Below the pieces are notes generated by a model. That model had not been told where the DNA came from. It made no database searches and worked only from the letters and a program-made list of their open reading frames with translations. This document shows, in pieces, positions 11,304 to 57,339 of a stretch of 64,000 nucleotides of DNA. Each line of letters starts with the position of its first letter. The stretch's first letter is position 1. The translations under genes were made by a program, and so were the position numbers. Source of the DNA: Anthoceros angustus (Eukaryota; Plantae; Anthocerotophyta). The stretch lies in contig VJWM01000179.1 of NCBI GenBank assembly GCA_010909165.1, positions 186,001-250,000 on the forward strand. Reading direction: 5' to 3'.

Positions 11304-13249
11304 ATGGTGCTGGCCGGGCAGGTAGCGGCAGGGCGCGCGTCCTACTCTCGCTGCAGCTGCTGGATCTTGAAGGTGAAGGCCAGGGAATGCGCAGCTCTGC
11401 TGCCCGGCAAGCTCTTGTCGTTGCGCGCCTTGCGGGGAATTCTCAAGCGGAGCTGCCTGGAGAGGAGGTCCCAGGGCGCGGTGTGGATTCCCCTCCCCCT
11501 CCCCCGCACGCAGCGCGCGGTGCCCGGATCGTGGCAGATCGCCCAATGCTGCTCGGGAAGTCGGGGGATCCACGGCGGATTGCGGGAGTATGGCCGCAGC
11601 GGTAGAGAGCGGTGGGCGGCGGTGTGGAATGGCTGGAGGCGGGGGATGTGCGTGGGGCGGGGCGGTAGGGTTTCAGCCGTGGAGTGCCTGGCGGAGGCGG
11701 AGGCGGCGGCGGCGGACAAGGAGGATGTGAGCTCTCTGCCGTGGCGGAGGCTGGGAAGGTGGAGGAGCTGGAGGAGCTGGTGCAGTATTTTGTTCGGCGG
11801 AGGATCTCGAGGAAGACGCTGGAAGCGGGCGGAGTGATGAGATATGGTGGTGCCATTGCGTTTTTGTATAAGCAGAGGGATGGGAGGATTGTGAACTGCA
11901 AGTTCCGGGACTCGAGCAAGAGGTTTTGGCAGGCGAAGGGCGGGAAGAGGATTCTGTACGGGTTGGACGGGCTGGAGAAGGATGCGAAGGAGGTGGTGAT
12001 CGTGGAGGGGGAGATGGACAAGTTGTCCATGGATGAGGCTGGGATCCCTAATTGCTTGAGTGTGCCGGATGGAGCTCCGGCTGTGGCGGTGGAGGCGGGG
12101 GTAAAGGATCCGACGCCGGGGGAGGACAGGGAGTTCGGGTACCTGTGGGAGTGCAGGGAGTTTTTGGAGAAGGCGACCAAGATCGTGCTTGCGACCGATG
12201 ATGACGAGCCGGGGCAGGCTCTTGCGGAGGAGCTGGCAAGGCGGCTAGGGCGGGAGCGGTGCTGGCGGGTGAGGTGGCCGGCGGCGGAGGGCGGGGTGAA
12301 GGTGAAGGATGCCAACGACATGCTGCGGCTGCTTGGGAAGGATGCGCTGCGGGAGGCGGTGAGGAAGGCGGAGATGATGCCGATCCGGGGACTGTTTCAC
12401 TACTCGGAGTTCTCGAAGGAGATTGATGACTACTACTACCTCCGGCTGGGGGATGAGCGGGGAGTGACCACGGGGTGGCAGGGATTGAACGACTTCTACA
12501 GGGTGGTGCCGGGGGAGCTGACGTTGGTGACGGGGGTGCCGAATTCCGGGAAGAGTGAGTGGATTGATGCGCTGCTCTGCAACCTTAACCAGCAGAGGAG
12601 GTGGACGTTCGCGCTGTGCTCCATGGAGAACAGGGTGCGGGAGCACGCCAGGAAGCTGCTGGAGAAGCGGATGGGGAAGCCCTTCTTCGACGCCACCTAC
12701 TCCAGGTCGGTGCCCAGGATGAGCCCGCAGGAGCTGGCCGCGGGGATGGCGTGGCTGGACGAGACGTTTGTGCTGATCCGGTGCGAGGACGACCAGCTGC
12801 CGTCCGTGGACTGGGTGCTGAGGCTGGCAAAGGCAGCCGTTCTGAGGCACGGGATCCGGGGCCTGGTGATCGACCCCTACAACGAGCTGGACCACCAGCG
12901 GCCCGGGGGGCAGACGGAGACCGAGTACGTGAGCCAGATGCTGACCAAGGTGAAGCGGTTTGCGCAGCACCACGACTGCCATGTGTGGTTCGTGGCTCAC
13001 CCCAAGCAGTTGGCTGCGTGGAAGGGGAACGCGCCTAACCTGTATGACATTGCCGGGAGCGCGCATTTCATCAACAAGTGCGATAACGGGCTGGTGATCC
13101 ACCGCAACCGTGACCCGGACAGTGGCCCTGTGGACGGGGTCCAGGTCCTGGTGAAGAAGGTCCGCAACAAAGCTGCCGGCACCATTGGCCAGGCCAATCT
13201 CGCATACGATAGGGTCACTGGACAGTACACGGATGTCGAACCACGTTGA
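11304..13249 (+). CDS. Twinkle-like organellar primase-helicase (T7 gp4-like), intronless; the N-terminal zinc-binding region is in a different frame from the TOPRIM-helicase ORF 11684-13249
   Basis: TOPRIM motifs (VVIVEGEMDKLS, SVPDGAP, IVLATDDDEPG, KDANDML), Walker A VTGVPNSGKSEW, and SF4 helicase motifs LVIDPYN, VWFVAHP and IAGSAHF. The upstream frame from ATG 11304 has a WAAVWNGWRRGMC remnant of the W-N-C-x-R-x-x-C zinc-finger motif. Confidence 0.93.
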
Positions 13250-16049: not shown

Positions 16050-16940
16050 AGTGACTGTACATGAATCGTATATCATCTGCTCCTGCGTGCAAATTCGCAG
16101 CATCGGCAACCACTCAGCCAAAACTTCGCAAGGATCGAACCTTGCACGTCATTCTAAGATCGGGGAAACATTACGTGCCTGCCTGACCAACTCGGCAGGG
16201 TGTGTACTGTGTCTACAGAAGTGTGCAGGCGCTGGAGGGACACGACGTGTGGAGCCGACGAACGTCAAAGCGGCAGCCAAAATGGTGCCGCAGGCGCAGA
16301 CTGTAATATATCCCCGATTCCCTGTTGCACAGTCCTGTGGGGCCTAATTAATGCAAATTTACACTTGCCCAGCACCAGTACTTTGCAAGACTGCGCTACA
16401 ATGGTACAGCACCTGGCCAGCTTCTTACTAACTGTGGTCAAAGCTCAGCCATTTCAACTGTTGGAAATTGCACCAGAAATAAGGGCTGATGTCCACAGCT
16501 GCTGAAATCGGAGGTACATCCTGGCACCAACCCTGCACACTTGCATTTCACCAGGCACATCAAGCTGGAAGAGATGATACTAGGCTCTCAGAATTGAAGA
16601 GCCAGTCGTCACCTTGAGGAAAGACGAAGAAGGTACTGATGTTGGGGTCACAAAATAGCCACCAGGTTATGATCAGAATTCAGGATGCGTGATGAAGTTT
16701 CACAAGTAAAGACTACGACTCCAGAAATTTACATCGTCTAACGAATTCGTTTGCTTACCTAATCCACGTACTTGGTCCCAAAGGGTCCCAATTCGGGAAC
16801 AGCAATGGATGCGTCCGCCACACAACACATTGGTGTGCACACCAGAGTAAGGACTGCCACTGGACAGCACTCTGTATCGGAGGCTGGGAGTCATGTCAAA
16901 CAGGCAAACTTGCAGTGTGTGCTTTGTACATTCTACATGT
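16050..16940. repeat. Copy 1 of a local dispersed repeat or segmental duplication (other copies ~18620-18985 and ~24040-24970)
   Basis: Shared blocks include GGGAAACATTACGTGCCTGC, CTGAAATCGG...CCCTGCA(C/G)ACTTGCA, AGCTGGAAG(A/G)GATGATAC and CATCGTCTAACGAATTCGTTTG. Confidence 0.85.
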
Positions 16941-16967: not shown

Positions 16968-17192
16968 GTCCACCAGGCAACTACCGACATCCCTTATTGC
17001 CCTCCAGCCCTCCTTTCTGTATTTGCAGACGAAGATCCTTGCCCAGTTGGACAGCTCCAACGTTTGTGAATCTGGGAAACAAATGAATGTGGCAAAATTG
17101 CGTGCAGCGGTGCCCTCCTGCTGAGTTTCTGCATAAAGGGCTATGGTTTCCTCATTTGACCCGTGCTGGGCATATCCTGCTATGATAGGTGT
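16968..17192 (-). pseudogene. PLS-class pentatricopeptide repeat (PPR) gene fragment
   Basis: IIAGYAQHGSNEETIALYAETQQEG...ATF (P-type motif), then in a shifted frame NVGAVQLGKDLRLQIQKGGLEGN (L-type motif), then VGSCLVD. The fragment is frameshifted and isolated. Confidence 0.85.
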
Positions 17193-18619: not shown

Positions 18620-18985
18620 CAGCACAGTGTGGGGCCTAACGCAAATTTGCACCTGCCCAGCACCAGTGCGTTCCAGGACTGCGCTACAAATAATACAGCT
18701 CTTGCCAATTGGCAAGTTGTTACCAACTCCGATGAAGCTCAGCCATTTGAATTGTTGCAAATTGCACCATAAACAAGGGCTCATGTACACAGCTGCTGAA
18801 ATCGGGGAACATCCACACCCCGACCCTGCAGACTTGCACTCATTCCCCAAGCAGCTGGAAGAGATGATACAAGGCTCTCATACTCAAGAAACAAAGAAGT
18901 TATTAATGTTGGGGGTTCAGAATTAAATAGGTAGTCATATATCAGCGTATGATCTATAGAATTCAAAACCGTGATGAAGTTTTAC
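18620..18985. repeat. Copy 2 (partial) of the local dispersed repeat
   Basis: GCACAGT..TGTGGGGCCTAA...TGCCCAGCACCAGT...GACTGCGCTACAA matches 16327-16400, and the similarity continues to GTGATGAAGTTT. Confidence 0.85.
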
Positions 18986-21686: not shown

Positions 21687-23172
21687 ATGAGCGAGCTGGG
21701 CGAGGTTGGGAGAGTTCCGTCAGGGAGGCAATTGGGGAGCTGGGCCCTGTGTTTTTAAAACGCATGCAAATTGGGTGCGGGATGTCTCGGAAGGCCCGGC
21801 CCGCAGATGCGAGCGGCAGGAGGAAGGCTAATTCTCTGCAGTGCTGCATGTGCGGGGACGAGGGATTTGTGGATCAGCTCGGGAAATGTAGCGTCTGCGG
21901 CACCCGGTATCAGCACTTGTGAGTATGATGGATGCAGTCTTGATGCTCGTGGGGAAGCTTGGTTTGGCATGCCTTCGCTCTCTGACGTGCCTTGTTTGTT
22001 CTTCCCTCCTCTTGTGTGATCGATGCAGGTACTGTTGCGTGCAGCACAATCCTGAGGGAGTGGTGGTTCTGGATACGGGATGGCCGGACCCCTTCTTGTG
22101 TGACTGGTGCCGCCAAGTGACGCCCAGTGTGGTGGTTCCAGTGGCGTCTGCCGTGGAGAAGGCGGCGGCCAGGGAGAAGCTTGTCCCCAACGTCTACAGG
22201 CCCTGGTTGATGCAGGAGAAGAACGGCGGCGGTGTGGGTGCCGACGGGCTGGACTTTCTGGTGCAAGCGGCCCTGGATGGATCGCCTGCGGAGTCGTGCA
22301 ATCGGAGCCGGGACAGCAGCGGGGAGAATGCCAGCAACGAGGTGCGCAGTGCGGAGGAGAACTCCGCATGTGACACTCTTTCTTCTACCAGCACGATTGA
22401 GAGCGTGAGCGGCCATGGAGCTGCTGCTTGGCGGAAGCAGAGGCAGGGGCGGGCTGCGCAGGGGCAGGTGCAGGTTCAGGTTCAGGACAGGCTTCAGACT
22501 ACTACTGCTGACACGCTCAGTTCGAGCTCCAGCCACCAGGAGCAGATGAAGGGGTGTCAAGCCCTGGGTTCCGATGTGTCGGGTCCGGCTGCCGACGGCA
22601 TTGCCACCAAGGATGCCTGTCAGGGGTTCAATCGGTTGTCGATCAGCAAGGAGGGTGCTGGAGCGGAGGCGGCGGCTGCGAGCCGGGCCGTGTCCAACAC
22701 CCGTGCAGGGCCCAGCCCTGACATCTGGATGCCTCCTGTCAGGCTCATGAGGGGATTCAAGAAGAGCAACCATGTGGTTGCAAACAAGACGCTCGTGCAA
22801 GAGGAGAGCAAGCCCTCGGAATCGCCTCCCCCTGCTCCCAGGGTTCTGCTTAGAAGCCAGAGTTTGAAGGCCTTGTCTGAAAGGAAGCCCCCCCGCAAGG
22901 AAGGTCTGGAGAGGAGCACCAGCCTCCAGTCAGGGTCCTCCATCACTCGAAGAAAGCAGAAATTGCTTGAGAGTATCAATTCGGTGGCGCCCCCGGTCGT
23001 GGTTCATGGTGCAGGAAGTCGGATTCCGGAAGGTGACAAGAGTTTGCCAAGCCAGCTGCCATCTGTGAAGAGAATGAGAATCAGCAACGGTAGAGCGGAA
23101 GTAAAGGCGCCCGTGCCCCAGGGCTTGCTGCCGGTGCGCAGGTACAAGTCCTTGTCGGAGTTATCTTGTTGA
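21687..23172 (+). CDS. PHD-like zinc-finger protein (plant 'ECCMCGD...CDWC...RRYK' family, At3g60520-like), exons 21687-21704, 21842-21918, 22029-23172
   Basis: The spliced product is MSELGECCMCGDEGFVDQLGKCSVCGTRYQHLYC...FLCDWC, followed by a long disordered middle and the conserved C-terminal VRRYKSLSELSC. Confidence 0.88.
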
Positions 23173-24039
23173 CACATCCCCGGCTCCAATCCACTCCTTC
23201 ATCCGGCGGATAGAATTAGGTCATGGGGAGTGTACAGAAGAATGCCGAGCCCTGCAGCTCTTGGTCCGGAGATATGGCAGCTGGTGTTGGAGCCGTGGCA
23301 GTGATGTTTGATCGAGGGGTTGTGCTGCGGGTGAGCCCCTTTGTAAATTGCAGGCGAGGTAGGGTAGCGCGGGGCAGGGAGGTCACTCACGTTGTGAGCT
23401 TCATGGCCTCAAGGTGTACTGTTTATGTATCACTTGTAGCTTGCAGCATGCTAAGAGATAGGCTAGTTGCTTCAGGAGCTAGACCGGCATAGGCTTGGGA
23501 CGATTGCCGGCCCCATCTTAGGTGCCAGATGTTCTTGGTGTCTTCCCGATGTACATTAGCTACGCTTCTTCTAACACGGTTCAACCTCTTGCAAAATCTG
23601 TGCACTGTAATCAATACATGCAACTTGCACTTCCCTTCACCGATCCAATCCCCTCTGTGCGCCTTTCGTGGAATTTGTGTTGTTCGAGATCAAGCTGGCA
23701 GAATTGTGGCCGACCACCTGCACTTCCAGCTGCAGCAGTAACATGGCCGCCACCAGCAACATGAGCCCATCGCGAGTGTGGCACGCGCGGAATCGGTCCT
23801 CGAAAGGGGGAGGGATGAAGTTCGTGCACGTGTTAATCGACCTCCATCAGGCATCAAATGCATGCGATACTGGCGAAGTTTGCAGGCTGAGCTTACTTAC
23901 GTCGTAGCCCTTGATCATCTTGCCGGCTGCAATGCTGCAAGGGCCTGTGAATTGGTCTCCAAGGGAACCTAGGAAACCGTGGATTCCTTCCTGCAAGCGA
24001 CAAGCCACTGCACACGGAAGGTGTATGGCTTGAAGGACG

Positions 24040-24970
24040 TGGATCGATTATCACCTCCTCCTGCATGCAGATTTGCAGCATTAGAACCAGTCAGCTGAAA
24101 CTTGGCAAGGAAAACTTTGCACATCATCCCAAGATCAGGGAAACATTACGTGCCTGCTTGTTCAAGTCTGCAGGGTGTGTACTGTGTAGAAGTGTGCAGG
24201 CAGTGGACTGCAAGAGTGGAACCTCCGCACGTCAAATTGGCACCCAAATTGGTATCGCAGCCTGTAGTGGTCACAGGTCTGTGTGTCTCGGCCATTTGAA
24301 CTGTTGCGAATTGCCACCAGAACTAAGGGCTCCAGTCCACCGCTGTTGAAATCGGAGCACATCCTGGCACCAACCCTGCACACTTGCATTTCACCCATGA
24401 CACCAAGCTGGAAGGGATGATACGAGGCGCTCGGAATCAGGAGCCAGTCGTCAGCTTGAGGAAAGACGAAGAAGTTATTGATGAAGGGGGTGACAAAATA
24501 GCCATCAGCTTATGATAAAATATCAGAATGATTGTGAGTGATGAAGTTGACAGATAATTCTACAACTCCAGAAGCTTCATCGTCTAACGAATTCGTTTGA
24601 GTAATCCGCGTACTTGTCCAAGAAAGGTCTCAATTCGGGAACAGCAATATCTAGCCAAGGTTTTGCTTGGCCATTGTAATCAGTAGCAGCGGACTGTTGA
24701 CCGTTTGTGACCACTCTTCACTTGCGTCAAGAATTCCGGTCAGGAGTCAGGAGCCAGGGTCAGGAGTTCATGTAGTCTATTGACAAGCATGGGAGAGTTG
24801 GAAGAGGTCGGTGAGAACCGGAAAAGATGCTCAAGTCGAAGTGGATCGTCGACGACACACAACAATCGTAGGGGCTGGGATGTATGTCAACACCTCATTC
24901 AATAAATCACTCAACACGAGCGATGTAGACTCTGCAAACTTGCACTGCGTGGTGTGCACATCTATGTATG
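24040..24970. repeat. Copy 3 of the local dispersed repeat
   Basis: Colinear with 16050-16940, with an internal deletion relative to copy 1. Confidence 0.85.
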
Positions 24971-25618
24971 TTTATGACCCGTTTGGCGAGAGCGGCCACC
25001 GCAAACTGGCCCTGGAAGATAGGACAGCCTGCGGGTCAGTCGTCTTTCTATGAACACAGCCTGCCATGCCGCCATGCCTTTCCCGACCGTTTCCAACGTC
25101 CAACGCCGTAACGGTCAGTTGTGTTACTGCGTGGAACCAACAGATACATACAATGTAAATATACGATTTTCTGACATTTCTTATTGGGTAGCCGTTAAGT
25201 AGCCCTAACCCTGGATCTGAACCAAAAATGAATCTAAATTGCATAGTACTTACTTATGCATGGATGAGATTGGGGTAACTTTTATCCCTGTTTTATTTTC
25301 TTCTAGAGTGTAAATTTTAAATAATTATTTAAAATAATTATTTTTTTACTAACTTCTCTCTTGGTCTTGGGCTGAATTTGCCGCCTTTCCCCCTTCAACT
25401 TAAAGGCCTTTTTTGCTTGTAATCTTTCCTTTACCGCCTTCATCTCCTTGACATTCCCAACCCGAGCCCTCCCTTATCACGTCCTTAATTTCCTGTAGGT
25501 TTTCTCATTCATGTTAGCTCTCCCATGCTACTATTTAGCTTTAAAGGCCCGAGTTTGAACCTTTTAGACTCCCAGCTTGCACCCCCTGTTTCCAGCTTTC
25601 CCTCTCTCACCTCCCCCC

Positions 25619-26205
25619 TGTCGCACGAGGTAAGCACTTGAATTCATATAAGCACTTCTTCGACCAACAGCCAAGGAAACAAATCTAATACGCAAATATA
25701 TAGGTGCAACCAATAACAACAGGAGGAGGTAGCTCGCACGTCGTAGCACAAACATACTCTCCCCAGGAGAACAACACGCAAATTCCTCACACATCGCTCT
25801 CGGAGTCATAGCTTTGGCCTCCTCACAACACTCTTGCATTGCATATCTAGAGGACAAGCTATGATCTGAGCTTGTCCTCAATGGAAGAGTATATATATAC
25901 TAGACCCTGGCATCGGCATATTCCTAAGATATCCTATTGGCATCAGCATATGCCAGAAATATCCTAAGAATACACTATAATATGTAAGGAATATGCCAAA
26001 GCATATTACTTGAGCTTATCCACTTAGCTATTGTATCCTAAGAATACATTATAATATGCAAGGAATATGCCAAAGCATATTACTTGAGCTTATCAACTTA
26101 GCTATTGCTAACCATGTTTAATTAACGCTAATCAATGCTTAATTAACATAAGCATCTTAGATTAATTAACACTAATTACTCACTTAAAGATAAGTAATTA
26201 GATTA
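25619..26205 (-). repeat. 3' LTR of the DNMT-Gypsy element (U3 end truncated; internal ~73-bp tandem duplication at ~25960-26107)
   Basis: Matches 45012-45405 from TAACAACAGG to GATAAGTAATTAGATTA. It has a TATA-like TATATATA at ~25890 and the hairpin GAGGACAAGCT-n8-AGCTTGTCCTC at 25850-25879. Confidence 0.9.
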
Positions 26206-26410
26206 CCATTTTCTTCTTGCCTTATTGAGCCTGTGCCTCCTGCAGAACACTGGTTCATCCTTGATTAGTTCTATGTGGAACTTCCCTTTGGTGTACTTCC
26301 CCATCTCCGCAAGCGTGAAAGCAAACACATGTCGCGATGCCTCCAACAACTCCTTTAGCTGACGCCGTTGGTTGCTCTTCAACTCGACGCCTGTTAACCA
26401 CTCATGTAGC
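26206..26410 (-). pseudogene. N-terminal (pre-RT) portion of Gypsy reverse transcriptase, truncated against the LTR
   Basis: LKSNQRRQLKELLEASRHVFAFTLAEMGKYTKGKFHIELIKDEPVFCRRHRLN matches the typical Ty3/Gypsy protease-RT linker. It is in frame with the DNMT motifs in ORF 26203-26919. Confidence 0.8.
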
Positions 26411-26569
26411 TGTGGCTCAGATGGCTTGCATGCTTCCTCTACGCGCTCACTCTCCTTGCCCTCCAAACTCGCCTTCTCTTGTTGAGATGCGAGTGCTGGA
26501 ATGTCCTTCACCCACCGAACCCGCTGCTTCAACCTCGCCTTCTTCTGGTTTCGAAGTTGGTAAGCGACT

Positions 26570-27129
26570 CCAGCGCTAAACAACCAGGTCATCATGTTCA
26601 TGTCAAATGCTTGCCCAAGCAATCGACACCGTTCCTTCTCGGTCACTCCTCGGATCATGCCAAAATCCTCCTGGACTTGCTTCTTCACGCTCATGCATGC
26701 TGGCACATTCTCCAACATGTATCCGCAAGGCCTTTCTTGCCCTTTCTGGATCAAGCGCAAGATCCTCATCAGGTCATAGAACAATGTTGTTCGTGGATCC
26801 TTCAGACCTTGACCCTTTCCTGCAGAGGATAGTCCTTGACACTCCCAACCTGCGATGACAAGGTCCACCGGTTGCCCAAGACAACTGAAATGGGACAACC
26901 CTATCATGCGAACATCCATCGGCGCCTCGGTAACCCTTCACCGACTCCCACGCCAAGAGGTTAGGTACTCCCCATCAAGTCTCTTACGCGCTGACACAAT
27001 CCTTGCTTTTGGATCCGGGTCACAATGCACGATCTTCGCACTTTGATGCCACACTTTAGCACTGCCCAAGCCGGGATCGATGCCTCCAAAGAGTTCCACG
27101 AGCACTATGCCGCTTCCCGAGGTCGCCAT
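26570..27129 (-). pseudogene. C5 cytosine-specific DNA methyltransferase domain inside retrotransposon pol (frameshifted, apparently internally deleted)
   Basis: Motif I IVLVELFGGI, motif IV VDLVIAGWECQGLSSAG (catalytic Cys retained), motif V GLKDPRTTLF, motif VI YMLENV and motif X ERCRLLGQAFD are present. Motif VIII and the target-recognition domain are not visible. Confidence 0.88.
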
Positions 27130-27499
27130 GTGATGACCGGGTGTTTAGGTCACAAACATGTGCTCAACCCTAGGCAAGAACTTACATAGCCTCCTCAGGA
27201 CATCGGGTCCTCTTGCACCATCCTCCACAGCTTTTGCACGGCTCATTGTCAGTCACCACCACCGTCCTGAAGAACCTCCTCCGAGGGTGGTTGCAACCCT
27301 AGCTTGTCTTCCTCCTCCTCGTCGAAATCCTCCATCCGGGCCATGTTGTTAGACACACGCCAAGAGGTTCAAGCACGATGGCGGTCCTTCACTACGGCGC
27401 CAAACACCGGGTAGACGCTGGCAATGAGGTTCTCATGATCCTTGCCATGCAGGTAGAGGGATGCGGGCAATCCGTTCATGGTTCTTTTCTCCACCGGTC

Positions 27500-27860
27500 G
27501 ATAGTAGACTGCTCCGCCCACAAATCCACCATGACTCTGTTTGTACAAAGCGTCCGCTCGGCAAGACATCAAATGTGTCTGCATCTGACCAAGCAAAGGT
27601 ACCTCGACAAAGGTGAAGTCTTGTTCTTGGTTTGAATGAAACCTTCAGCTTGTACCTTGTCACCCCAACACATGCTCCGTGGTCCCACAAGGTCCGATCT
27701 TCCACTTGGTTTCCTTCAACCTTTCTTGGTGGAGACCCAACGCTTCCTTCACTCTTCTTCCAACGATCACCTACTGTGCTTGTCAATCAACACCTCCTTG
27801 GTGCGAATCCATTGATTTCAATGTGCCTCTCCCGATTGTTGACCAAAGCCACCCCACTCA
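27500..27860 (-). pseudogene. Degenerate retroviral-type aspartic protease of the DNMT-Gypsy element
   Basis: Read across small indels: HIEINGFAP-(K)EVLID..AQ.VIVGRRVKEALGL (DTG-type active site), and later DTFDVL(LG). Confidence 0.6.
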
Positions 27861-28004
27861 GTAAAGATTCCGCTTCCACGAGATGCTTGGTTCGGAGGTC
27901 AGCAATGACATCATTGCTACCTGCTGTGGCAAATCTTAGACACTTGCTTCGTCTTCAAGGGTTGTCAACATCCGCCGAGTCAAACCCCTAACTTCCTTCA
28001 TGCT

Positions 28005-31000
28005 TGTGGCGCGACTTTTGCTGACGGCCAGCCGGGCGCGCACAATCCCGTGTCGTTGTAGGAAGGAGTTCGTTCCCAAGGGAATGTGACTGCTTGCGCT
28101 GCTTCAAAGCGATTCTCGCCTTACTTTGCGTCGCTCGGTCCCAACGCACACACCTTAGTTCACGCCTAACTACTCGCGACAAACACCGCAGTGCCGATGG
28201 CTAAACGCTTAAGGACCTGTCAGGCTCTGCTCGCTCGCCTCACACCTCCGGCCCACCTCTCCACTCACACTACACTTATCGGCCTTTTAAGAAAAGACGG
28301 GGTTACATGCCCGACCTCCTCCGCTGCTCCACCGCCTCCGTCCGGAGACGCGCTCCCCAAGTCCCTCCGGCCACACGCTCCGGTCCGTTCGGCGGGCGCG
28401 GCTGGGCGAGCACGGGTCCCCGCCACCCTTCCCCGCACACCACAACACGTTAGGTCCGTCACGGGACCACGATCGATCCTCCCGAGCCGGCTCGCCGTGA
28501 CTCAGACTCACGTTATCAAGAAGACACACAAGGTCTACAAGAACGCTGCATCAACACCAAGAAAGATGATTTATTGGCAGCCCGGCCCTCTTATACTACG
28601 CCCAGTCGGCGCCTTTATTACACCCCTATTACGGTGGCCATTTCGGTATGCCTAATCGACGCCTACCATCCTATTCCTCCCCTATCTCCTTCGCCGGTGG
28701 TGGGAAGGTCCGGGTTCCGCCTTGGGATTGGTGGTCCAATCTCCGATAATTAAGCACTAATCGGATGATCCGCGAGGCGGACCTCCTTTCTCCCGAATCG
28801 CCAGTTATACGGCGGGCGGTCGACGACCGCTACCACAACGTCATCCTCCCCTGGCCGGGTCCCCTCGGTGGGGCCCATTCTCTGCTCCCCTAAGCGTAAG
28901 TCGAAGGGGCTCCTCCTTACCGCCGAGTCCGGACCTCGAGGTCCGGGTCTCGACCCCGAGCCCGAACTCCAAGGGTCCGGCTTATTTCCGAGTCCGACCG
29001 GCCGGTCCGCTCTCGGGTTCGGACCTCGTGGTCCGATATACCGGGTCCGATCCCCAAGCTCCGGACTCCCGTGGACCTCGATCGCTAGGTCCTCCTCCTT
29101 ACCCAGACCCTTGTCTTGGTTGGGTTGGCTCCCCTTGCACCCCTGCCCCCCCCCTTGGCGGATCGGGTGGTGGTGAACTTACCTTGGGGTCCGCTGCCCG
29201 CCTCCTCTTGGGGCTCCTCTCCTTGCCGTCGTCTCCAAGCAGGGCCCCTAGGGTCCCCTCGGTGGGGCCACGGATCTGCTCCCCTAGCGTAAGTCGAAGG
29301 GGCTCCTCCTTCTTGAGTCCGGACCTCGAGGTCGGTCTCGACTCGAACTGAACTCCAAGGGTCCGGCTTATTTCTGAGTCCGGCCTGGGTCCTCGTCTCC
29401 GGGTTCGGACCTCGGGGTCCGTGAATAGGTCCGTCCCCAAACTCGGACCCCTTCCGGACCTCGTCTTGCTAGGTCCTCCTCCTTACCCAGACCCTTGTCT
29501 TGGTTGGGTTGGCTCCCTTTGCACCCCCTCACCCCTTCCGGATCGGGTGGTGGTGAACTTACCTTGGGTCCTGCGTCCCGCTCCTCTTGGGGCTCCTCTC
29601 CTTGCCGTCGTCTCCAAGCAGGGCCCCTAGGTCCTGTCTTGTCCCGTGCCCTTCTTCCCCTCCGAGCCTGGGTCCGTATTGCGGGCCGAGGCCTCTACCG
29701 CCAGGAGCTCGGTGTGGTAATAGGCAAAGTCCGAATCCACTTGTGGATTGCCTCTTCCACGCGCCCGAGCACCATACTCCCTTCGCCATAGGTGCTCCGG
29801 AGCCGAGCCTCTGCCGCTTGTTGCTCCACCTCCCGCCAAGTTTGATAGCCGGAGCCGGGCCGCGAGGTCGCAGGCGCCTGCCACCTCCCCGCCGTTGCTC
29901 CACTTGCTCCAACTCCTCCGCCTGCTCCGCCACCTCCCGCCATAGCCGCGTTCCTTCAAACTTCCTCGGTGCTTCTTATACCTTCCGGCGCCCTCGCCTC
30001 TTTGTCCATTCCGTTAACTCGCCATCTCCCGCCTCCCTCCACGGCCGCAACACGCCAGAGCGGCTTCACCCAGCCTTTCCATCTCGGCGTCACGCTCCTG
30101 TTCCATCGCCCCTTCACTCCGTCCAGCAGGCCGGGCCGCTCTATTTCCGGTCGCGTTCGCGACCATGTCCTGACTACCATTCCTCTCAATGATAGTTTGA
30201 GCCGCAGCCCAAAGTCTCCTTGCGGTCCTCCATCTCCCCGCCGCTGCTCCACCTCCCGAGCCGAGTCCGAGATCCTCCATCTCCTTGTCGCGAACTTCTT
30301 GGCCTGGCCGTCCGGCTTGCTCCGCCACCTCCCCGCCATCTTCGTGCGAGGAGGCTATCTCCGCCAAGTCTGGATTCTCCCATTGAGAATTCCTTGCTTG
30401 CTCAAGCGTCTTGGGTTGTAACTCCAAGGTGTCCTTCTTGTCCTCCAACTCCTGCCGCCTCCCTTCTACCTCCTGCAGTGCACAGGGTCCCGATTTCCCG
30501 GGTCTTGGCCTCCAGGACGGCTTCTGCGCTTGCTCCGCCACCGCCGGCCTTCGCCGTGGCTCTCTCGGCCTCCCTCCACCGGTTCGATCACGCCGATAGT
30601 GATCGCGATCGGCCGCCGTGGCCTCCGCCTCCTTGGCCACCTTCACGAGCCTCTCGGCTTGGCTCGGGCTTCCCTCCTTGGCCACCTTCACGAGCCTCTC
30701 GGCCGCCGTGGCCTCCGCCTCCTCTTGGCTCCTCCGCCTCAGAGGTCCTCCGCCGCTGGGCCTCCTTGGCTGCTTGGTCCTCGGTGAAGGAATTTAGTCC
30801 GGTCCTTGCGGATGGACGGACCTCCCTCTCGCCTCCCGGCGCTTCCTCTCAATCCGGCCGAGCTTGGCCTTCCTTGCCTCACAGGCTCCCTCCAGCTGCT
30901 CACGGAGTACCATGCGCCTCGGGTGGCTTCTACCTCCGGGTCTTGGCCTCCAGTGTTTATGCGGCTCGTCGTGCTTGCTCATGCCACTGCTCGGCCTTGG

Positions 31001-42859: not shown

Positions 42860-44240
42860 TAAGGAAACATGGCATCTCCGTTTGTGCCATCGCTCACAAG
42901 AATCGGCATGGGTTTCTCCACATCGCCCACTCTGACTTTGATGTTGCTCCCACAGCTGTTCTCTGCTGGCAATGGCTCAACGACTTTGGCATCTTGGCAT
43001 AGGTTCGGGAAGAGGATCCCAAGCTTCCTTCCGTGTCTTCCGTGACCGGTGTCAAGACATCCTCTTCTTCCTCCGAGCTATCTTCTCTCGTAGCTGCCAG
43101 AGGTTTCTTCCCTTGCCCTTGATCCGTCACCGCCATGTATCCAAGCTTGTGCTCATCTTCTTCGTCCTCCGATGATGAACCGCCTCCTTGATCTTCGCCT
43201 TCCGCACCAACTTCTCAGCTTTGCAAGGCGTGCCACGTAGCCCATCGCCTTCTTTGATGCTTCCCGCTTTTGTCCACGGACTTCGCCTGCCTCCACGGCC
43301 TTTGCTCTTCACGATTTTGTGGATGAGGTTGATGCATTGGCCGGGTTGCCGCTCGACAACCCGTGAGGCCGCAATTCGGATGCTTCTCCCAACATGCCGC
43401 TTCATTGTGCCTGTACCTCCCACACCTGGGGCATGGCCTCACCCTTGACTCCTCCGAATGCATGCTCGCACTCATGAGGGGAATGGTCCGCCCCACCTCA
43501 CGCAGGGCTCCACTTGGGCTGTGGGCTGGCTTGTCTCGCCGAGCTCCTCCACTGACCTCCGCTTGGCCATGTCGCCCACCACTCCTACTTGTGCCGGAGT
43601 AATCACTAACAAAGACGAGAGAAAGTGTCGGGCCCTATCTTGTCACCCATCTCGTACACTTCCTTGAGGGTGTAGTGTTGCCCCTTCGTGCACCGCTTGT
43701 TGCACCTTCATGCGCAGCATATGGCAATGCCTCGCAAGTATGCAGCCAGGGTCACTCATGATCTTGGTGTCACGTACCAACTGGTCGATTCTTCGATAAG
43801 CCATCTTCGCAGCCTCTCGACTTCATCTTGAAGTGTGTCACCGAGATCTTCTCATCCGTGCTGTGGAAACTCACCGGAAGATGTCAAACATCTCTTCGAT
43901 GGGATCGTGCCCACTCGCCACCGCCTCCGTCTGCACCGGGTTCCTTCGAGCTTGAACTGCTACTCACCGGTCCTCCACGCCAACAGCCGCCAGGTGCTCG
44001 CGATAGCACGCCAATGCTTCATCCCCAAGTACTTCGGCATTTGGATGAAGCCGTATCGCTCGTGTATCCGGTCTTCAATTCCATCTCCGCACACACCGCA
44101 CTGCATTTCTCGATGAAGTCCTCCATGGCAAGGTGCCCGCCTGTGAACAACTCCATTCGATCCTTGTCTCCTCCCATCTTGACGACTCCAAGAGACAAGT
44201 CCTCCTGCCGCTCACCGAGTTGTCCCGGCAAAGACTAACG
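42860..44240 (-). pseudogene. gag of the outer DNMT-Gypsy element
   Basis: MELFTGG..MEDFIEKCSAVC gag-like N-terminus, and a CX2CX4HX4C knuckle CPRCGRYRHNEAAC at 43392-43433. The region is frameshifted. Confidence 0.8.
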
Positions 44241-45949: not shown

Positions 45950-46641
45950 AATATAAGCACGAGCATTTTTACTAATCAGTTGCGACTAAGTGCTAGACAA
46001 GGTAGATGGCAAGACTTTCTAGCAATGTATGATGAATTTATCAAGTGTAAGCCATGAAAGGAGAATTTTGCGGCAGATGCTTTGAGTCACAAGGAGTGTT
46101 TGAGTTTCATTATTGCTTTTATGTTGAAGAGATATAAGCTACCTAGAATACATATGGTGATTGAGTCAAGGGATACCCAGACGCCAATCAAGGAAGCTTA
46201 TCTACAAGATGCATTGGTACAAAACTGCATCACTGAAGTGGAGCAATCGAAATCTAAGTTTAAGCTTAGGGATGGCTTGTTGATATTCAAGCAAAGCACG
46301 ATTGTGATTCCTGATTCTCAAGAGTTGAGAAGAAAGTTGCATGCAAAGTGTCATGATGTGCCAAGTGCAGGCTAGGTCATCGAGGAATTGACCCAACTTA
46401 TGAGAAGTTGAGAAAGCTGTTTTACTAGCTTGGAATGTATAAGAATAATGTAGAGTATGTTAAGTCTTGTGTAGACTGCCAGCAGGATAACATAGACCAA
46501 ACAAATTCGCAAGGTTTGTTACAACCTTTGCCTATTCCAAGTGAGCCTCGGAAAAGTATATCAATGGATCTCATTATGCCATTGCCAGCTAGTGATGTAC
46601 ACACAACTATCATGAAAGTGGTTGATAAATTCAGCAAGCAA
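45950..46641 (+). pseudogene. Ty3/Gypsy RNase H-integrase fragment, cut by a CACTA insertion
   Basis: LSARQGRWQDFL, ADALS, the integrase zinc finger CHDVPSAG...YVKSCVDCQQ, and LLQPLPIPSEP..ISMD..MPLP..VVDKFSK. Stops are present. Confidence 0.88.
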
Positions 46642-49600
46642 CACTACTACAATGCATCACTGTTTATGACGGCACAAAAGACGCTAAAATAACGGCAAGG
46701 GCTAAACAATAACGCCCCTCGGTTTGTCGAAAACGTTTTTTTCGGCGTCATTCAAAACACATCATATTCGAGAATTATGACGCGTTTGGCCCGGTTTTGG
46801 ATCGAATCTCCTTGACGATGCACAGGGTAGCCGTGGCCATTGACTGACTAGGTGTGGGCCCCACCGTGAACGGAACCGGAAGTTGTCCAAACCGGGACAA
46901 GTGACGGGCTCAACCATTCCGTGATGGGATCTCGCCGGCCCGCTCATCCCGATGTGGAATTTGTCCAACTATGCCGGTGCCACATTTTCCGTTCTTGGCA
47001 AAAGGCACGTGCCACCTGTGAATGGCATGCATTTAGCATACAACGCGCGTTCACACACGATCAGCCAGTGAAGATGCATGCGTCCCATCACACTATTTGC
47101 ATTTTCCGTGTATTGTCCAGATTGGTCGTGAAGGATGAATCTAGTCTGTCAGTGCAGTTTGTAAACCACGTACTGTTATGCTCGGAGACTTCATTTTCAA
47201 ATTCAAATTGAGGCTGCGACTCCGCCATTTGCAAATTACCACAATTGTAAATATGGATTAACCTTAGAGGTAACCCGGTGTAGACCTCGTTATAAATGAA
47301 TGGCCTACAACAATTTAAAGGTCATATTATCCACCACCAAGCTAATCGTCTCGCAGCGGTCTGCGGACACTCATTGACTCGGATACCCAGCGTCGTTTGC
47401 GAGGGAGGCACGCGTTTGCGATGCTCAAAGTGCGCACCATCGACTAGCAAAGCCACGCATACCAGGTCGTCATATATGAGGCATACTGGGTCCAAAGATA
47501 TTGGGGGCCCTTTGTTCTTCCTTCGCTTATTCTTTTCCTCTACACCCTCTTCTCCATCCCCACGCTTGGGGGCCGTTCTGAGTCTTCGCTTCAATGGGGC
47601 CTCCCTCGATGGGCACAAAGATTCGCAATCACACCGCATTAAAACATTGACCACCACGCCACAATGCTAGCGAACCCGAACATGCATAGCCACGATTGCC
47701 AACTTTTGCCACTAACCTCGCTCGAGATGGGCCAGGGTTCCCGGGACTTAATCACGCAACAAGGCAATCAAGGAGTGACAATGTGCATTAAAATTGATTC
47801 CATCATGAAGCAAATGAGCGTCTTGATAAATTGCTAACGAATTCCGTCGAGCCCGGGTTATTCTCCTAGTGGCCACTGGGGGTGGTGAAGTGGTTACGCA
47901 AGCGTGGTCCACTTATGTGTCTAGGAACACAGCCCTCCATCGATGCATGCATTGGCCGGCCAACGAGTCCGACGTAACATTCTCCTCTATGTCCCAAAAC
48001 CAACCAACAGACTACTCATGATAGGACATCGAATTGACCCAACTTGCTGGTATGGCAAAGTACGGTGCATGCAGATTGGCAAACCTTCCCCAATTGAAGT
48101 CCTCCAGGTCTTTGCTTTGCGTGCATCACGGAGTGACTTCACATTCTCAACTCCGTGGACAAGGCACCATTCCACCTCACGTTTTGATGGAAGAACTCCC
48201 CACCTCAATTTGAAAGACTTGCGAATCTCGTGGCACCTCCCGGCCATAAGGGTTGCAAGCACCACCATCGAACTTTTTCATGCGGGCCTCACAGAGCTCT
48301 GCTTTGTTGAGGTCGAGGCCAAACACCACCACCGGTCTAGCTCACGGACTCCAAATTGAACACACTGTCCATGCCTCCTCATGATCATCCATGCGAGATC
48401 GGGGTCATACCCCTTTCCTCATCTGCGCGCAATCTTCACCCTCTCTTGCACTTGGAAGTTTCGTTGCCTTGCACAAGCGGAAGCTTGTGATGGATGAAAT
48501 CCGGTTTGTGGCCTTGGGGAAAGTCCTGCCACTGCGTCAACCATCTCTCCTCGACGACATTGAGTGCTCGGTGTAAGGCTTCAACAATTTCAAGCAGTGC
48601 ACCAACTCATTGATTCGCTTGGAAGTTGGACTTGTCTGTGGTGAGAACACCAAAATTAGTGCGGACTCGTCCACCTTTGAGCCCTTTGACACACTTGCTC
48701 CTTCACAAGAAACTCGAGTTGCCTCCGGTCAACGCCATGCACCTTTAACGACCTTCAACACATCAGTTAGAGAGCAGGAATGATGTTCAATAAAGCACGG
48801 CAGCTGGGCTCGAGTGCGGGTGCTTCCACCAGCTTCGAGAATCGCCTCCAAATGATTGCCTCCGGTCATCGTCCGTCTCCTTCCCCATCACACGCAGATC
48901 TCGACGCTCTTCATCTTGATGAGGTGAAGCGACCTCACTACCCTCGCATTCTTGGACCATGTGTCCCTCAACGCGGTCCCTCATGGCAACGCACCTTGTT
49001 ACACGCTCTAAGCAAAGTAAAGTCCTCTGTAAGAACCAAACGCAAATAGCGGTGGTGGAGTAAGAGCGTAAGATCCGATGCTGTGGTAGGTGACACGCAT
49101 TCCCCCTTCACATGTTTTGCCATAGTACGATCTCTCGTGCGGCGCCAAAACAGTGTAAGCCCGCCAATGAACGAGACACGAAGAGCTTCAATTTGAATGC
49201 GATGCGGCGATTGCTTGCCCGCCACGTTTGCCACGAGGTCGTGCTTCCCTTGAAAGACCAGTTCACGCTGGACACAGGCGAAACTTCTTACAAGGTGGTG
49301 TCGACATGCCGGCGGCAAATGGAACTTTATTCATGACGGCTGGACCTCTCGAAGCAAGATACATTCCCAAAAAGGGCCCTCAAGCACCGGATCGTGTGAC
49401 AATGGCAGCACCATCTCGACATTTGCATTTCTCTCCGTACTCATTATGAAATACCTCGCCTGCAGCAACGTGGACGTCAACAAGAGTGCCGGATCGTGAT
49501 GGATGGCGTTTTCTCATCGTTTCCCCATTAGCCCCAATCGATGATGTCTATCAACAAGAAAGAAGGCGAGCTTTCCTATCAAGCGTCGAGGTATCCTTGT

Positions 49601-52600: not shown

Positions 52601-53787
52601 ATCGGTCCCTCCGGATCAAAACCGAGTATAAACACGGGCGACCTTGGTGAGCAGATTGTGATAAGGCGTCTTGCGAGCTTTTACGCCTCGTGTGAAATGG
52701 GTCGTTTAAGTATGGCTTTATGTTTCATGCTGCGATTACACCTCGGTGGGAATCAGATTGACCCTTGAAGTCGGCCCTTCGGTAGGGCGTGATGCAATCG
52801 AAGCACCCGCTCATGTCGGTGTGTGCAAAGAGGTTTGATAAAACCATCTCCTTCAGTACAATCACGAGGCCGGTGGGAAGCGGGAGTTTTGATGACTCAA
52901 TCAAGCGGCGCATAAGCTTTCCATTTTGAACAAAGGCTGTGAGAGGCCACCAGTTACAAGGCCGCCGACAAGGTCCCGTGGTTGATCACATCCTCCAGCA
53001 ACTGTTGCTCTTCATGCACCGGTCTTTACGCTTGTTTGCTCATCCTATCCGTGAGGCCCTGCACCAACAACGAAGGAGGGACCGGATGGATGCGAATGGA
53101 AGGGCTGCATCCGTCTCCTTGAGAGCAATGTACAACGGAGCGTCAGAACATCTTTGGATCCGAGTGTCGGATGCGTGGGGTGAGACACACCTAAATGGGG
53201 CGATATTCAAGCGGCGTGGATGTGGGTGTAGCACGGGCGAGGCCGGGGGAGTCCGCCCCACCAATCCCAATTTGGACTTGGCGGCATGCCCCGATCCGCC
53301 ATGTGGTGATTATGTGTGCGTGCTTATCGCCCGGAGCGTTCCTTCCGCAATTTGGACACTGGACACGGACGGGTGTTCCAAGTCGCCGAGGCACCTATGA
53401 TAAGCGTATTTGGGCGAGAGTTCATCATTGCGGCGTGTGGCGATTGACGACTCGGGCCTGCCACTTGCGCGGTGCACCACCGGGACGTTGAATTGGTGGT
53501 GGCAAGCTGAGCTTGGATATGTGATGTTGTCCGCGCCCAAGAGCTTGGAGCATTCATCGTTGATATAATTGAAGAGATGCGCCGAAACCCCACTCTTGCA
53601 TTTGTCCGTTGTGGTGGAGGTTGGCACTCGCAACACGTCTTTTCTTCTTCCGTATTTGTTGGGGAGCAAGTTCGACATTCTCTGCGTCGACTTGGAACCT
53701 GCCTTTGAGTTTGCAAGCTCCAATCCTGTTACACGTGAGCCCCCCAACGATGAGCCACATCTGAGTGTGGAAATTGGTATGCAGTTC
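46642..53787 (-). mobile_element. CACTA (En/Spm) DNA transposon 1: left terminus plus internal region
   Basis: Begins CACTACTACAA exactly where the integrase homology stops, followed by ATGACG/CGTCAT-type subterminal motifs. Transposase remnants lie inside. The other terminus was not found in the window. Confidence 0.8.
49400..53780 (-). pseudogene. CACTA TnpD-like transposase (Transposase_21 / DUF4218-like), frameshifted
   Basis: YAYHRC...QCPNCG; QNVRFAFAD; CDYPRLGSFFGLQVRGKAACIDCG; RALPYLQSL...MHVEAN; LKSHGLMMQYYLPIAL; and a WMYP-like segment near 50420. Confidence 0.8.
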
Positions 53788-54079
53788 CACTACAAGAAAA
53801 TGAGGGTTTTTACAACGGTTTTTACAACGGGTGTTACAACGTGGCGTTGTAAAACGGCGCAACAACGCCGTTGTAAACCGAGAGCTTCATGACGCTAAAT
53901 TGCCGACATGGCCGCCTGTCAAAAGTGGTGATGTGGCGCCACATCATCGCCACATCACCAAGTGATGACATGGCATGTTGTTGCCACATGGCCTTCATTG
54001 CCACATCATCGGTGATGACATGGCATAATTTGATGACATGGCCCTCATTGCCACATCACCATGTGATGACGTGGTGCCA

Positions 54080-55140
54080 TTTTACAAAACCATTTACAAC
54101 ATCCCAATTGCAAAAGGAATTACAACATCTAAGTTTGAGACGCCTTGTGGGTACAACGCGCTTTACAACGACTGTTTTACAAAACCATTTACAACATCCC
54201 AATTGCAAAAGGAATTACAACATCTAAGTTTGAGACGCTGGTGTGGGTACAACGCTTTACAACGACTGCTTTACAAAACCATCTACAACATCCCAATTGC
54301 AAAGGAAGCAATTACAACATCTAAGTTTGAGACGCCCTGTGGGTACAACGCGCTTTACAACGACTGCTTTACAAAACCATCTACAACATCCCAATTGCAA
54401 AAGAAATTACAACATCTAAGTTTGAGACGTCTGGGGTACAACGCTTTACAACGACTGCTTTACAAAACCATCTACAACATCCCAATTGCAAAGCAATTAC
54501 AACATCTAAGTTTGAGACGTCTGTGGTACAACGCGCTTTACAACGACTGCAAAACCATCTACAACATCCCAATTGCAAAGCAATTACAACATCTAAGTTT
54601 GAGACGTCTCGGTGTGGGTACAACGCGCTTTACAACGACTGCTTTACAAAACCATCTACAACATCCCAATTGCAAAGCAATTACAACATCTAAGTTTGAG
54701 ACGTCGTGGGTACAACGCGCTTTACAACGACTGCTTTACAAAACCATCTACAACATCCCAATTGCAAAGCAATTACAACATCTAAGTTTGAGACGTCTTG
54801 TACAACGCGCTTTACAACGACTGCTTTACAAAACCATCTACAACATCCCAATTGCAAAGCAATTACAACATCTAAGTTTGAGACGCCTCTGGGTACAATT
54901 TTACAACGACTGTTTTACAAAACCATCTACAACATCCCAATTGCAAAGCAATTACACATCTAAGTTTGAGACGCCCTTGTGGGTACAACGCGCTTTACAA
55001 CGACTGCTTTACAAAACCATCTACAACATCCCAATTGCAAAGCAATTACAACATCTAAGTTTGAGACGTCTCGTGGGTACAACGCTTTACAACGACTGTT
55101 TTACAAAACCATCTACAACATCCCAATTGCAAAGCAATTA
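54080..55140 (+). repeat. Satellite array A, ~12 units of ~89-97 bp
   Basis: Unit: TTTACAAAACCATCTACAACATCCCAATTGCAAAGCAATTACAACATCTAAGTTTGAGACG(var)GGGTACAACGCGCTTTACAACGACTGC. I counted 12 CATCCCAATTGC cores. Confidence 0.95.
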
Positions 55141-57112
55141 GGTCGGATCGTGGGTGAGACACACCTAAATGGGGCGATATTCAAGCAGCGTGGATGTGGC
55201 CTGGCACAGGCGGCTGGGGGAAATCCGCCCCACCAATCCCAATTTGGACTTGGCGATGCCTCGATCCGCCATGGTGATTATGTGCGCAGCCAAAGCTATC
55301 GCTCGGGAGACGTTCCTCCGCAATTTGGACACTGGACACGGGCGGGGGTGTTCCAAGTCGCCGAGGCACCTATGATAAGCGCTGGGCGAGAGTTCATCAT
55401 TGCGGCGTGTGGCGATTGACGACTCGGGCCTGCCACTTATGGTACATGCACCAACCGGGACGTCGAATTGGTGGTGGCAAGCTGCAGGCGAGCTTGGATA
55501 TGTGATGTTGTCCGCCCAAGAGCTTGGAGCATTCATCGTTGATATAATTGAAGAGATGCGCATGAAACCCCACTCTTGCATTTGTCCGTTGTGGTGGAGG
55601 TTGGCACTCGCAACACGTCTTTTCTTCATACCGTATTTGTTGGGGAGCAAGTTCGACATTCTGCGTCGACTTGGAACCCCGCTTTGAGTTTGCAAGCTCC
55701 AACTTACACGTGAGCCCCAGCGATGAGCCACATCGAGTGTGGAAATTGGTATGCAGTTCCACTACAAGAAAATGAGGTTTTAGCGGTTTTACACGGTGTT
55801 ACAACGTGGCGTTGTAAAGCAGGCGAATAACGCCTGGGCAAACGAGAGCTTCATGGCGTTGTTGTAATTGCCGACATGGCGGTTCGATTGCCATGTCATT
55901 GGGGTGGTGATGTGGCGCCACATCATCGCCACATCACCAAGTGATGACATGGCATGTTGTTGCCACATGGCCTTCATTGCCACATCATCGGTGATGACAT
56001 GGCATAATTTGATGACATGGCCTCATTGCCACATCACCATGTGATGACGTGGTGCCATTTACAAAACCATTTACAACATCCCAATTGCAAAGGAATTACA
56101 ACATCTAAGTTTGACGCCCTCGGTGTGGGTACAACGCTTTAGCGACTGCTTTACAAAACCATTTACAACATCCCAATTGCAAAGGAATTACAACATCTAA
56201 GTTTGAGACGTTGTGGGTACAACGCGCTTTACAACGACTGTTTACAAAACCATCTACAACATCCCAATTGCAAAGGAATTACAACATCTAAGTTTGAGAC
56301 GTCTCGGTGTGGGTACAACGCTTTACAACGACTGTTTACAAAACCATCTACAACATCCCAATTGCAAAAGCAATTACAACATCTAAGTTTGAGACGTCTC
56401 GTGGGTACAACGCTTTACAACGACTGCTTTACAAAACCATCTACAACATCCCAATTGCAAAAGCAATTACAACATCTAAGTTTGAGACGTTGTGGGTACA
56501 ACGCTTTACAACGACTTTTACAAAACCATCTACAACATCCCAATTGCAAAAACAATTACAACATCTAAGTTTGAGACGTCGTGGGTACAACGCGCTTTAC
56601 AACGACTGCTTTACAAAACCATCTACAACATCCCAATTGCAAAGCAATTACAACATCTAAGTTTGAGACGTCGCGGGTACAACGCTTACAACGACTGCTT
56701 TACAAAACCATCTACAACATCCCAATTGCAAAGCAATTACAACATCTAAGTTTGAGACGCCTCGGGTACAACGCTTTACAACGACTGTTTTACAAAACCA
56801 TCTACAACATCCCAATTGCAAAAGCAATTACAACATCTAAGTTTGAGACGTCTGGGGTACAACGCTTTACAACGACTGTTTTACAAAACCATCTACAACA
56901 TCCCAATTGCAAAAGCAATTACAACATCTAAGTTTGAGACGTCTGTGGGTACAACGCTTTACAACGACTGCTTTACAAAACCATCTACAACATCCCAATT
57001 GCAAAAGCAATTACAACATCTAAGTTTGAGACGTCGTGGGTACAACGCGCTTTACAACGACTGTTTTACAAAACCATCTACAACATCCCAATTGCAAAAG
57101 CAATTACAACAT
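55141..57112 (+). repeat. Tandem ~2-kb duplication of 53165-55140, including satellite array B (56058-57112, ~12 units)
   Basis: GTCGGAT..GTGGG.TGAGACACACCTAAATGGGGCG restarts at ~55142. The flank, the CACTA terminus and the array are all repeated. Confidence 0.93.
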
Positions 57113-57339
57113 TTAAATTACAAATTTTAAGTATTATATATATAAGACAAACAAAAATATTATTAATAACACAAATATCTATTTTCAGCTTCTTTAAATG
57201 GGGCATATTTACAACAAGTGTTTTACAACGTCCTTTGTTGTAAATTTTGTATCTTGCACCTTGTTGTGCATTAGTGGGACACACGAGAAATGGAATGCTA
57301 CTACCAAATGCAAGCGATTCTAAACCCCAAAATGAACAG

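Follow-up and report, generated by a model that had tools for sequence, protein, structure and literature searches.

A dead DNMT3-bearing Ty3/Gypsy retrotransposon copy with split repeats, probably in the genome of a seedless land plant

Can a Ty3/Gypsy retrotransposon of a land plant encode its own DNA methyltransferase (DNMT)? The question is raised by a 64 kb stretch of contig VJWM01000179.1 (hereafter the window), for which an earlier note had described cytosine C5 methyltransferase motifs on the minus strand, between a degenerate aspartic protease and the start of the reverse transcriptase (RT). The order protease-DNMT-RT is real at positions 26206-27860, where it forms part of a retrotransposon here called element A. 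The copy in the window is dead, internally deleted and cannot work. We consider it likely that it is a copy of the KnitGypsy-Dnmt3 lineage residing in a seedless land plant, and that intact copies would package the enzyme and methylate their own complementary DNA (cDNA). The features which define the pol region of element A are the following.

27860-27500 (approximate), minus strand: aspartic protease domain, broken by indels, with the catalytic-motif region at 27791-27669, located with a profile of relatives
27096-27079, minus strand: DNMT motif I (S-adenosylmethionine binding), aligned to the retrotransposon-borne DNMTs of Closterium, Mesostigma and Klebsormidium
26853-26827, minus strand: DNMT motif IV (catalytic Cys, W-E-C-Q), within the PF00145 match
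26799-26779, minus strand: DNMT motif V
26712-26704, minus strand: DNMT motif VI (Glu)
26649-26650, minus strand: in-frame break in the DNMT, seen as a tblastn gap, in the motif spacing and in diverging contigs
26625-26602, minus strand: DNMT motif X, placed by tblastn and motif position
26412-26206, minus strand: N-terminal approach to RT, which aligns with Closterium Gypsy pol (E 7e-12) and stops at 26206

The earlier note had proposed a Pfam scan, and the open reading frame (ORF) at 26937-26203 (minus strand, 244 aa) matches PF00145 with an E-value of 1.3e-10, at 41.7 bits against a curated cut-off of 22. Motifs IV to X had been placed together in this one frame; motifs IV, V, VI and X do lie there, and VIII and IX are missing. 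Motif I shares the frame, with one in-frame stop in between, and the approach to RT forms the last 70 residues of the same ORF. The domain has no introns, and the alignment with Closterium shows it colinear with algal pol at either end. With a protease profile drawn from 14 relatives, the six frames of the whole 64 kb contained a single match, at 27791-27669 (independent E-value 5.8e-4), and the Closterium protein P0021 gave a weak tblastn match in the protease region (E 0.4). The PF00145 match, the motif positions, the protease profile and the Closterium alignment thus agree in placing methyltransferase motifs between the protease and the start of RT.

From its profile and fold ranks the domain is assigned to the DNMT3 type. 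When a profile was made from 25 family members, DNMT3A (2.7e-23) scored far ahead of HhaI (6e-11) and DRM2 (5e-6), and a fold search with a predicted model (predicted local distance difference test score, pLDDT, 79.5) puts DNMT3A, 3B and 3C on top with a best E-value of only 1.8e-3; the window ORF used alone places HaeIII/HhaI slightly ahead of DNMT3 (4e-5 vs 8e-4). A representative protein search returned 965 proteins at E <= 0.001, 150 of which were listed. Among 37 relatives scanned with Pfam, the DNMT follows gag/protease or precedes RT/RNase H in 11 and follows RNase H in 12, nine have no retroelement domain, and five have retroelement domains without a DNMT match at the threshold used. 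The Klebsormidium protein P0074 has the order knuckle-protease-DNMT as in the window, and P0007 carries a complete pol. DNMT-bearing relatives with a species name come from Closterium, Mesostigma, Klebsormidium and Scenedesmus, with no land plant among the nine that bear a species name in the 29 DNMT or RT-start matches checked. The W-E-C-Q form of the catalytic loop, earlier suggested as a family signature, is present in 67 of 120 sequences with a motif IV loop (171 examined), including those of Closterium and Mesostigma; being common to algal relatives, it is no family signature. Two DNMT trees were star-like and left the window alone on a branch in an open fork. As the RT of the window is missing and its DNMT falls in no supported clade, kinship is judged from architecture, termini and the 29-42% identity over the half of the domain from motif I to VI.

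The search also brought up a large group of Gypsy polyproteins (P0064, P0281 and a 43-row clade, with Scenedesmus as the named source) whose DNMT, of the same type, follows RNase H and precedes integrase, in many cases together with a PHD finger; these Scenedesmus-type elements form a separate RT group (85/95 support). In addition, P0032 combines a cytosine methyltransferase with a weak PCIF1_WW match (E 2.5e-6, below the curated cut-off), possibly a second methyltransferase. Viral contigs were scanned as well and contributed 31 loci, which match along short stretches at 34-47% identity.

Element A is not a solitary insertion. Contigs matching 25600-28023 numbered 2017, 5411 and 3123 in the sequencing runs of three organisms, with every bin covered, and the family of element A is therefore multi-copy in all three. 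On the gag side 337, 477, 308 and 49 contigs were found in public runs, and the interval 42900-43480 is covered by the same runs as the DNMT. A further run (X9), perhaps of RNA, contributed eight contigs.

The same contigs locate the damage in the window copy. About 135 residues have been lost, and with them motif VIII, the target-recognition region and motif IX, so that motifs VI and X stand 32 aa apart, as against 163-170 aa in seven of the ten relatives with all anchors (78, 101 and 131 aa in the other three). Contigs of other copies depart from the window exactly at 26649 (five in run X2 and 14 in run X5), which indicates that the family holds more sequence there. Downstream, RT is cut at 26206, where the 5'-truncated repeat A2 starts; most of RT is absent, and neither RNase H nor integrase is present in element A of the window. 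Other copies continue in different sequence at 26226-26228, and loose contig ends at 26205 (22 in X2, 16 in X5) continue like the 5' repeat A1. The deletion ending at A2 thus took RT, RNase H, integrase and the repeat segment B1, and what remains of the Gypsy gene order is the knuckle, the protease and the approach to RT. The assembly carries many single-base indels with respect to short-read contigs and is consequently noisy, which may account for part of the frameshifts and which led us to reject dates based on the identity of the repeats.

Outside pol the element is delimited by its repeats and terminal words, as follows.

45464-25619, minus strand: element A, the whole DNMT3-bearing Ty3/Gypsy copy, holding the nested element B, delimited by ends and repeats
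45464-45012, minus strand: repeat A1, the 5' repeat, which lacks the terminal segment of the 3' end (self-alignment)
43433-43392, minus strand: CCHC zinc knuckle of gag (C-x2-C-x4-H-x4-C), in a frameshifted gag remnant at about 44200-43300
26205-25714, minus strand: repeat A2, its 5' end truncated by the deletion (self-alignment)
25713-25619, minus strand: terminal segment B2, at the 3' end only, single copy in the window, ending in CGACA

Element A starts with TGTCATGCC at 45464 and finishes with CGACA at 25619, giving it TG..CA ends, and the same terminal words are found in the full-length relatives described below. Runs of G flank both ends, as a target-site duplication would give, its length being ambiguous within the run. 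A1 and 26205-25714 are 92-98% identical in the self-alignment when substitutions alone are counted. The final 95 bp of the element occur once in the window, which means that the 5' repeat is not an equal long terminal repeat (LTR) of the kind that defines Ty3/Gypsy elements; the corresponding bin (25600-25700) has contigs from each of the three DNA runs compared. The window therefore shows A1, A2 and a 3'-only segment, and the position of B1 lies in the deletion. Visual inspection of the sequence behind A1 revealed no primer-site-like word, either in the window or in any of five relatives, no search with transfer RNAs having been made, and a gag profile of the relatives had no significant match to the gag of the window.

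When only the window ORF was used to scan metagenomes, 83 sequences matched the pattern but none was confirmed, and no close relative emerged. From a scan with the family profile the best 80 of 240 relatives were kept (loci L032-L111); the pattern demanded W-E or W-P, and several loci duplicate each other across assemblies. Protease lies upstream in 54 of these loci, RT downstream in 58 and both in 41, and 33 have RNase H and integrase as well; full-length relatives read protease-DNMT-RT-RNase H-integrase-PHD. The GC content is below 45.5% in 73 of the 80, as against 52% for the window. One locus is flanked by a pentatricopeptide repeat (PPR) gene with an E motif and a DYW domain, a land-plant trait, so that the AT-rich loci are likely plant DNA of a lineage other than that of the window, and on this sequence evidence the AT-rich family is likely a second land-plant Gypsy-DNMT3 family. 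In uninterrupted relatives motif I, the catalytic Cys, the Glu of motif VI, the Arg-x-Arg of motif VIII, and motifs IX and X are all retained. The ratio of nonsynonymous to synonymous substitution rates (dN/dS) is 0.10-0.14 in five divergent pairs of 11, and by this measure the DNMT of full-length relatives is under purifying selection. A third family (L034, L041, L043 and L050) has 46-50% GC, a W-P-C-Q loop and long open frames; in L041 a single stop separates gag-protease-DNMT from RT-RNase H-integrase-PHD.

The full-length relatives also clarify the unequal repeats. Direct repeats far apart were present in 12 loci, nine of which were analyzed (L058, L100, L049, L061, L090, L068, L032, L047 and L102; L079, L106 and L108 were left out), and all nine show the split layout A1..B1-A2-B2. 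Eight of the nine start with TGTCATG, the ends are CGACA-like, and three have an exact 4-bp target duplication. The B1/A2 junction reads CA, two bases, TG in eight of the nine, and a purine tract precedes B1 in seven. This junction, together with the purine tract and the 4-bp duplications, suggests that a DDE integrase inserts the element from a circular form, in which case the split repeats would be the remainder of a two-LTR circle opened inside one repeat. The A1..B1-A2-B2 layout is described for DIRS elements in the review file of PMC5890265, and a legend there ascribes DIRS-type repeats to KnitGypsy-Dnmt3.

Between the gag and the protease of element A lies a second retroelement.

42840-28005, minus strand: element B, a Gypsy retrotransposon without DNMT, 14.8 kb
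42840-38536, minus strand: 5' LTR of element B, with a primer-site-like word behind it (alignment of LTR ends)
33386-28005, minus strand: 3' LTR of element B (self-alignment)

The LTRs of element B are very long and GC-rich (about 4.3 and 5.4 kb), with internal duplications, and the primer-site-like word after the 5' LTR presumably resembles the primer sites of Athila/Tat elements. Element B has its own knuckle near 37490 and remnants of RT, RNase H and integrase at 35636-34234, and no DNMT match was found in it. The LTR pair and the gag knuckle directly upstream, which had been assigned to the DNMT element, both have to be reassigned to element B; the DNMT element's own parts are the outer repeats (45464-45012 and 26205-25619) and the knuckle at 43433. 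A position of element B within the protease was considered and rejected, the profile placing the catalytic motif downstream of B. Both ends of element B are covered by contigs of run X1 only, among the runs of the three organisms. In all likelihood element A is one insertion interrupted by B.

The nature of the host was addressed through the genes flanking element A, which very probably belong to a land plant, as the earlier note had supposed; among them are PLS-class PPR remnants and a Twinkle primase-helicase. The latter (11669-13246, plus strand) is one uninterrupted frame of 526 codons; Twinkle genes of flowering plants are intron-rich. Land plants are closest to it, with no near-identical record in the best 120 of 3616 matches, and the species-named matches in these 120 are land plants, none of them Closterium, Chara or Klebsormidium. 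When a tree was built from 30 of these matches and the window, the latter paired with one sequence and fell in none of the moss, liverwort, clubmoss and seed-plant groups. The PPR evidence consists of a degenerate PLS-class remnant at 61545-61874 (E 6.5e-4; profile score 11.3 vs <= -0.2 in 10 shuffles) and, as no more than a lead, a PPR-like segment at 17186 (Atlas 0.90); Pfam scans of 125 and 131 flanking ORFs matched bZIP, KH and Twinkle and did not match PPR. A cytochrome P450 fragment, which we take to be of clan 71, is nearest to cinnamate 4-hydroxylase and to ferruginol and isoflavone synthases. The GC content outside element A is 49.6% and introns look short; a published hornwort genome has 49.6% GC, 173-bp introns and expanded PLS PPRs, an expansion which, according to the same source, came after the split of land plants and algae (PMC7027989). 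On the evidence of these genes a hornwort is the favored host, with Selaginella or Isoetes as the main alternative.

Other features of the window were recorded. The frame at 21892-23169 (plus strand, 426 codons) has a Cys/His cluster near its start and neither a Pfam nor a usable Atlas match. A 2-kb unit is duplicated in tandem at 53166-57116 (90% identical), and each unit contains a 50-bp repeat as well as a 91-92 bp repeat in about 11.5 copies. A decayed repeat occurs in three dispersed copies that are 77-81% alike (16059-16806, 18622-18880 and 24037-24648), and just outside element A, at 46369-46689 (plus strand), there is a weak integrase zinc-finger remnant of another retroelement.

What would an intact copy do with its enzyme? 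By analogy with general Gypsy biology the DNMT would be translated within the polyprotein, released by the element's protease and co-packaged in the particle with RT and integrase. Of the possible roles of the packaged enzyme, de novo methylation of the cDNA is the most probable, and new copies would then arrive marked and quiet. Catalytic activity of intact members seems reasonably probable; that their own cDNA is the main target, so that new copies are pre-methylated and quiet, we put at somewhat below an even chance. Self-methylation of cDNA has already been proposed by de Mendoza et al. (2018), who found that a dinoflagellate DNMT3 methylated CG in yeast and that the Klebsormidium domain gave no methylation, a result called inconclusive by the authors (PMC5890265). 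More tentative still is the possibility, suggested by the repeat structure, that a DNA circle methylated by the built-in enzyme is what integrates, so that copies insert already marked and the element acts as a second source of de novo methylation.

Several observations weigh against the reading of element A as a single KnitGypsy-Dnmt3-type insertion in a land plant with active relatives. The DNMT of the window belongs to no supported clade in either tree. In the window's own family eight of 17 listed variants are synonymous vs 27% expected (p 0.067), and dN/dS is 0.21-0.92 in six close or decayed pairs of the full-length relatives. The Klebsormidium domain left yeast DNA unmethylated in the published assay (PMC5890265). 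No contig joins gag to protease or spans the whole of pol, and no clean target-site duplication was found at the ends of element B. The LTRs of B (89-91%) are more diverged than the repeats of A (92-98%), the wrong order for a younger nested element unless assembly errors are responsible. In the Twinkle tree the window branch sits in an open fork with two presumed algal rows, and clan 71 P450s have three members in Klebsormidium (PMC9937507).

The explanation that survives best besides ours, unlikely as we consider it, is that the domain has been retained for a role other than catalysis or for another substrate, such as DNA or RNA binding or a choice of insertion site together with the PHD finger, and that no cDNA is methylated. 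The replacement of the usual residues before the catalytic Cys by W-E or W-P in most relatives speaks for it, as do the negative yeast result with the Klebsormidium domain and the cost that self-methylation would have in plants, where transposons are silenced by methylation. Opposed to it are the intact motifs I, IV (Cys), VI, VIII, IX and X in uninterrupted relatives and the finding that a dinoflagellate retrotransposon-borne DNMT3 methylates CG de novo (PMC5890265).

Less probable is that two copies were joined by recombination or misassembly, one contributing the gag part (45464-42850) and the other the protease-DNMT part (28004-25619), a view which would nevertheless keep the DNMT retrotransposon-borne. 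It draws on the absent bridging contig, the lack of a clean duplication at the ends of B, the older look of the B LTRs relative to the A repeats and an indel-rich assembly. It fits poorly with the G-runs at both outer ends, with terminal words as in the relatives, and with the presence of both halves in the same runs when the ends of B are found only in X1. Moreover, once element B is subtracted, the distance from knuckle to protease is about 265 codons, and 11 of the 12 relatives with a knuckle have 126-308 (596 in the remaining one).

That the host is a streptophyte alga, and element A another algal Gypsy-DNMT3, is quite improbable: every species-named DNMT-bearing relative is algal, the base of the Twinkle tree is not settled and no host gene has a near-identical named match, but the window holds PLS-class PPR remnants and the named Twinkle matches in the best 120 are from land plants. 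Finally, the idea that a piece of a host DNMT3 was captured just once, or that a host gene happens to stand amid retroelement debris, can be dismissed: bryophytes do own host DNMT3 genes (PMC10952607) and the domain is incomplete, but it is without introns and colinear with algal pol on both sides, has many variant contigs in three organisms and shares its domain order with 41 of 80 metagenome loci, so that the multi-copy, multi-species, intronless DNMT is retroelement-borne as first described.

If element A is a single insertion in a land plant, its significance lies in the distribution of such elements. Gypsy-DNMT3 was published in 2018 from one charophyte, K. nitens (PMC5890265), and later papers cite it as streptophyte (bioRxiv 10.64898/2026.05.21.726589; PMC12344493). 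According to a 2019 opinion article, land plants such as tracheophytes lack methylase-encoding transposons (PMC6338049). The earlier note knew of no characterized land-plant family, and our literature search likewise found no report of a land-plant Gypsy-DNMT3, with the known design only in algae, in a mostly open-access body of text that included PMC10952607, PMC7027989 and PMC8075897 and no repeat databases or supplementary figures. Multi-copy families in land plants would overturn the idea of a loss on land, at least for seedless plants, and the question of what a transposon gains by carrying the silencing enzyme of its host would move into plants for which methylomes and culture methods exist. 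The split repeats and integrase-type ends point to an unusual route of integration, and LTR-finding programs would likely miss such elements. Should the circle model be true, these genomes would contain a second de novo methylation source in the element itself.

Among known systems the more distant ones share the principle of a retrotransposon-borne methyltransferase. SymbioDIRS-Dnmt3 of Symbiodinium is a retrotransposon-borne DNMT3 and the only one for which de novo methylation of CG has been demonstrated; it differs in being a DIRS element with a tyrosine recombinase and, per the authors, an independent capture (PMC5890265). The EpiLTRs of Euglena and Cymbomonas are Gypsy-type elements with a cytosine methyltransferase, as in the window, but their DNMT is described as sister to DNMT4 and is accompanied by Dam and a chromodomain (bioRxiv 10.64898/2026.05.21.726589). 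The chlorophyte type represented by Scenedesmus P0064 (RT-RNase H-DNMT-integrase-PHD) likewise unites Gypsy with a cytosine methyltransferase and differs in having the DNMT after RNase H. The unannotated Gypsy-DNMT proteins of Closterium and Mesostigma share the W-E-C-Q loop with the window, and Closterium also the protease-DNMT-RT order and an alignable pre-RT stretch; they differ in their algal hosts, in an identity of 26-54% by segment and in the lack of a supported sister relation. The AT-rich metagenome family resembles the window in domain order, W-E-C-Q, the terminal words TGTCATGCC and CGACA, and split repeats, but has another host, 37-40% DNMT identity and full-length copies with a PHD finger, and its repeats show no nucleotide likeness to those of the window beyond the ends. 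The closest published design is KnitGypsy-Dnmt3 of Klebsormidium nitens, with which element A has in common an intronless DNMT3-type domain in Gypsy pol, the order knuckle-protease-DNMT (P0074 and P0288) and, as far as the published legend goes, DIRS-like A1..B-A2-B repeats, of which the window shows only A1, A2 and the 3' segment. Element A differs from it in its probable land-plant host, in 29-37% identity and W-E-C-Q in place of F-P-C-Q, and in being a deleted copy that holds a nested element. The architecture is thus not new, being that of KnitGypsy-Dnmt3; what is new is its range in land plants, apparently in two lineages.

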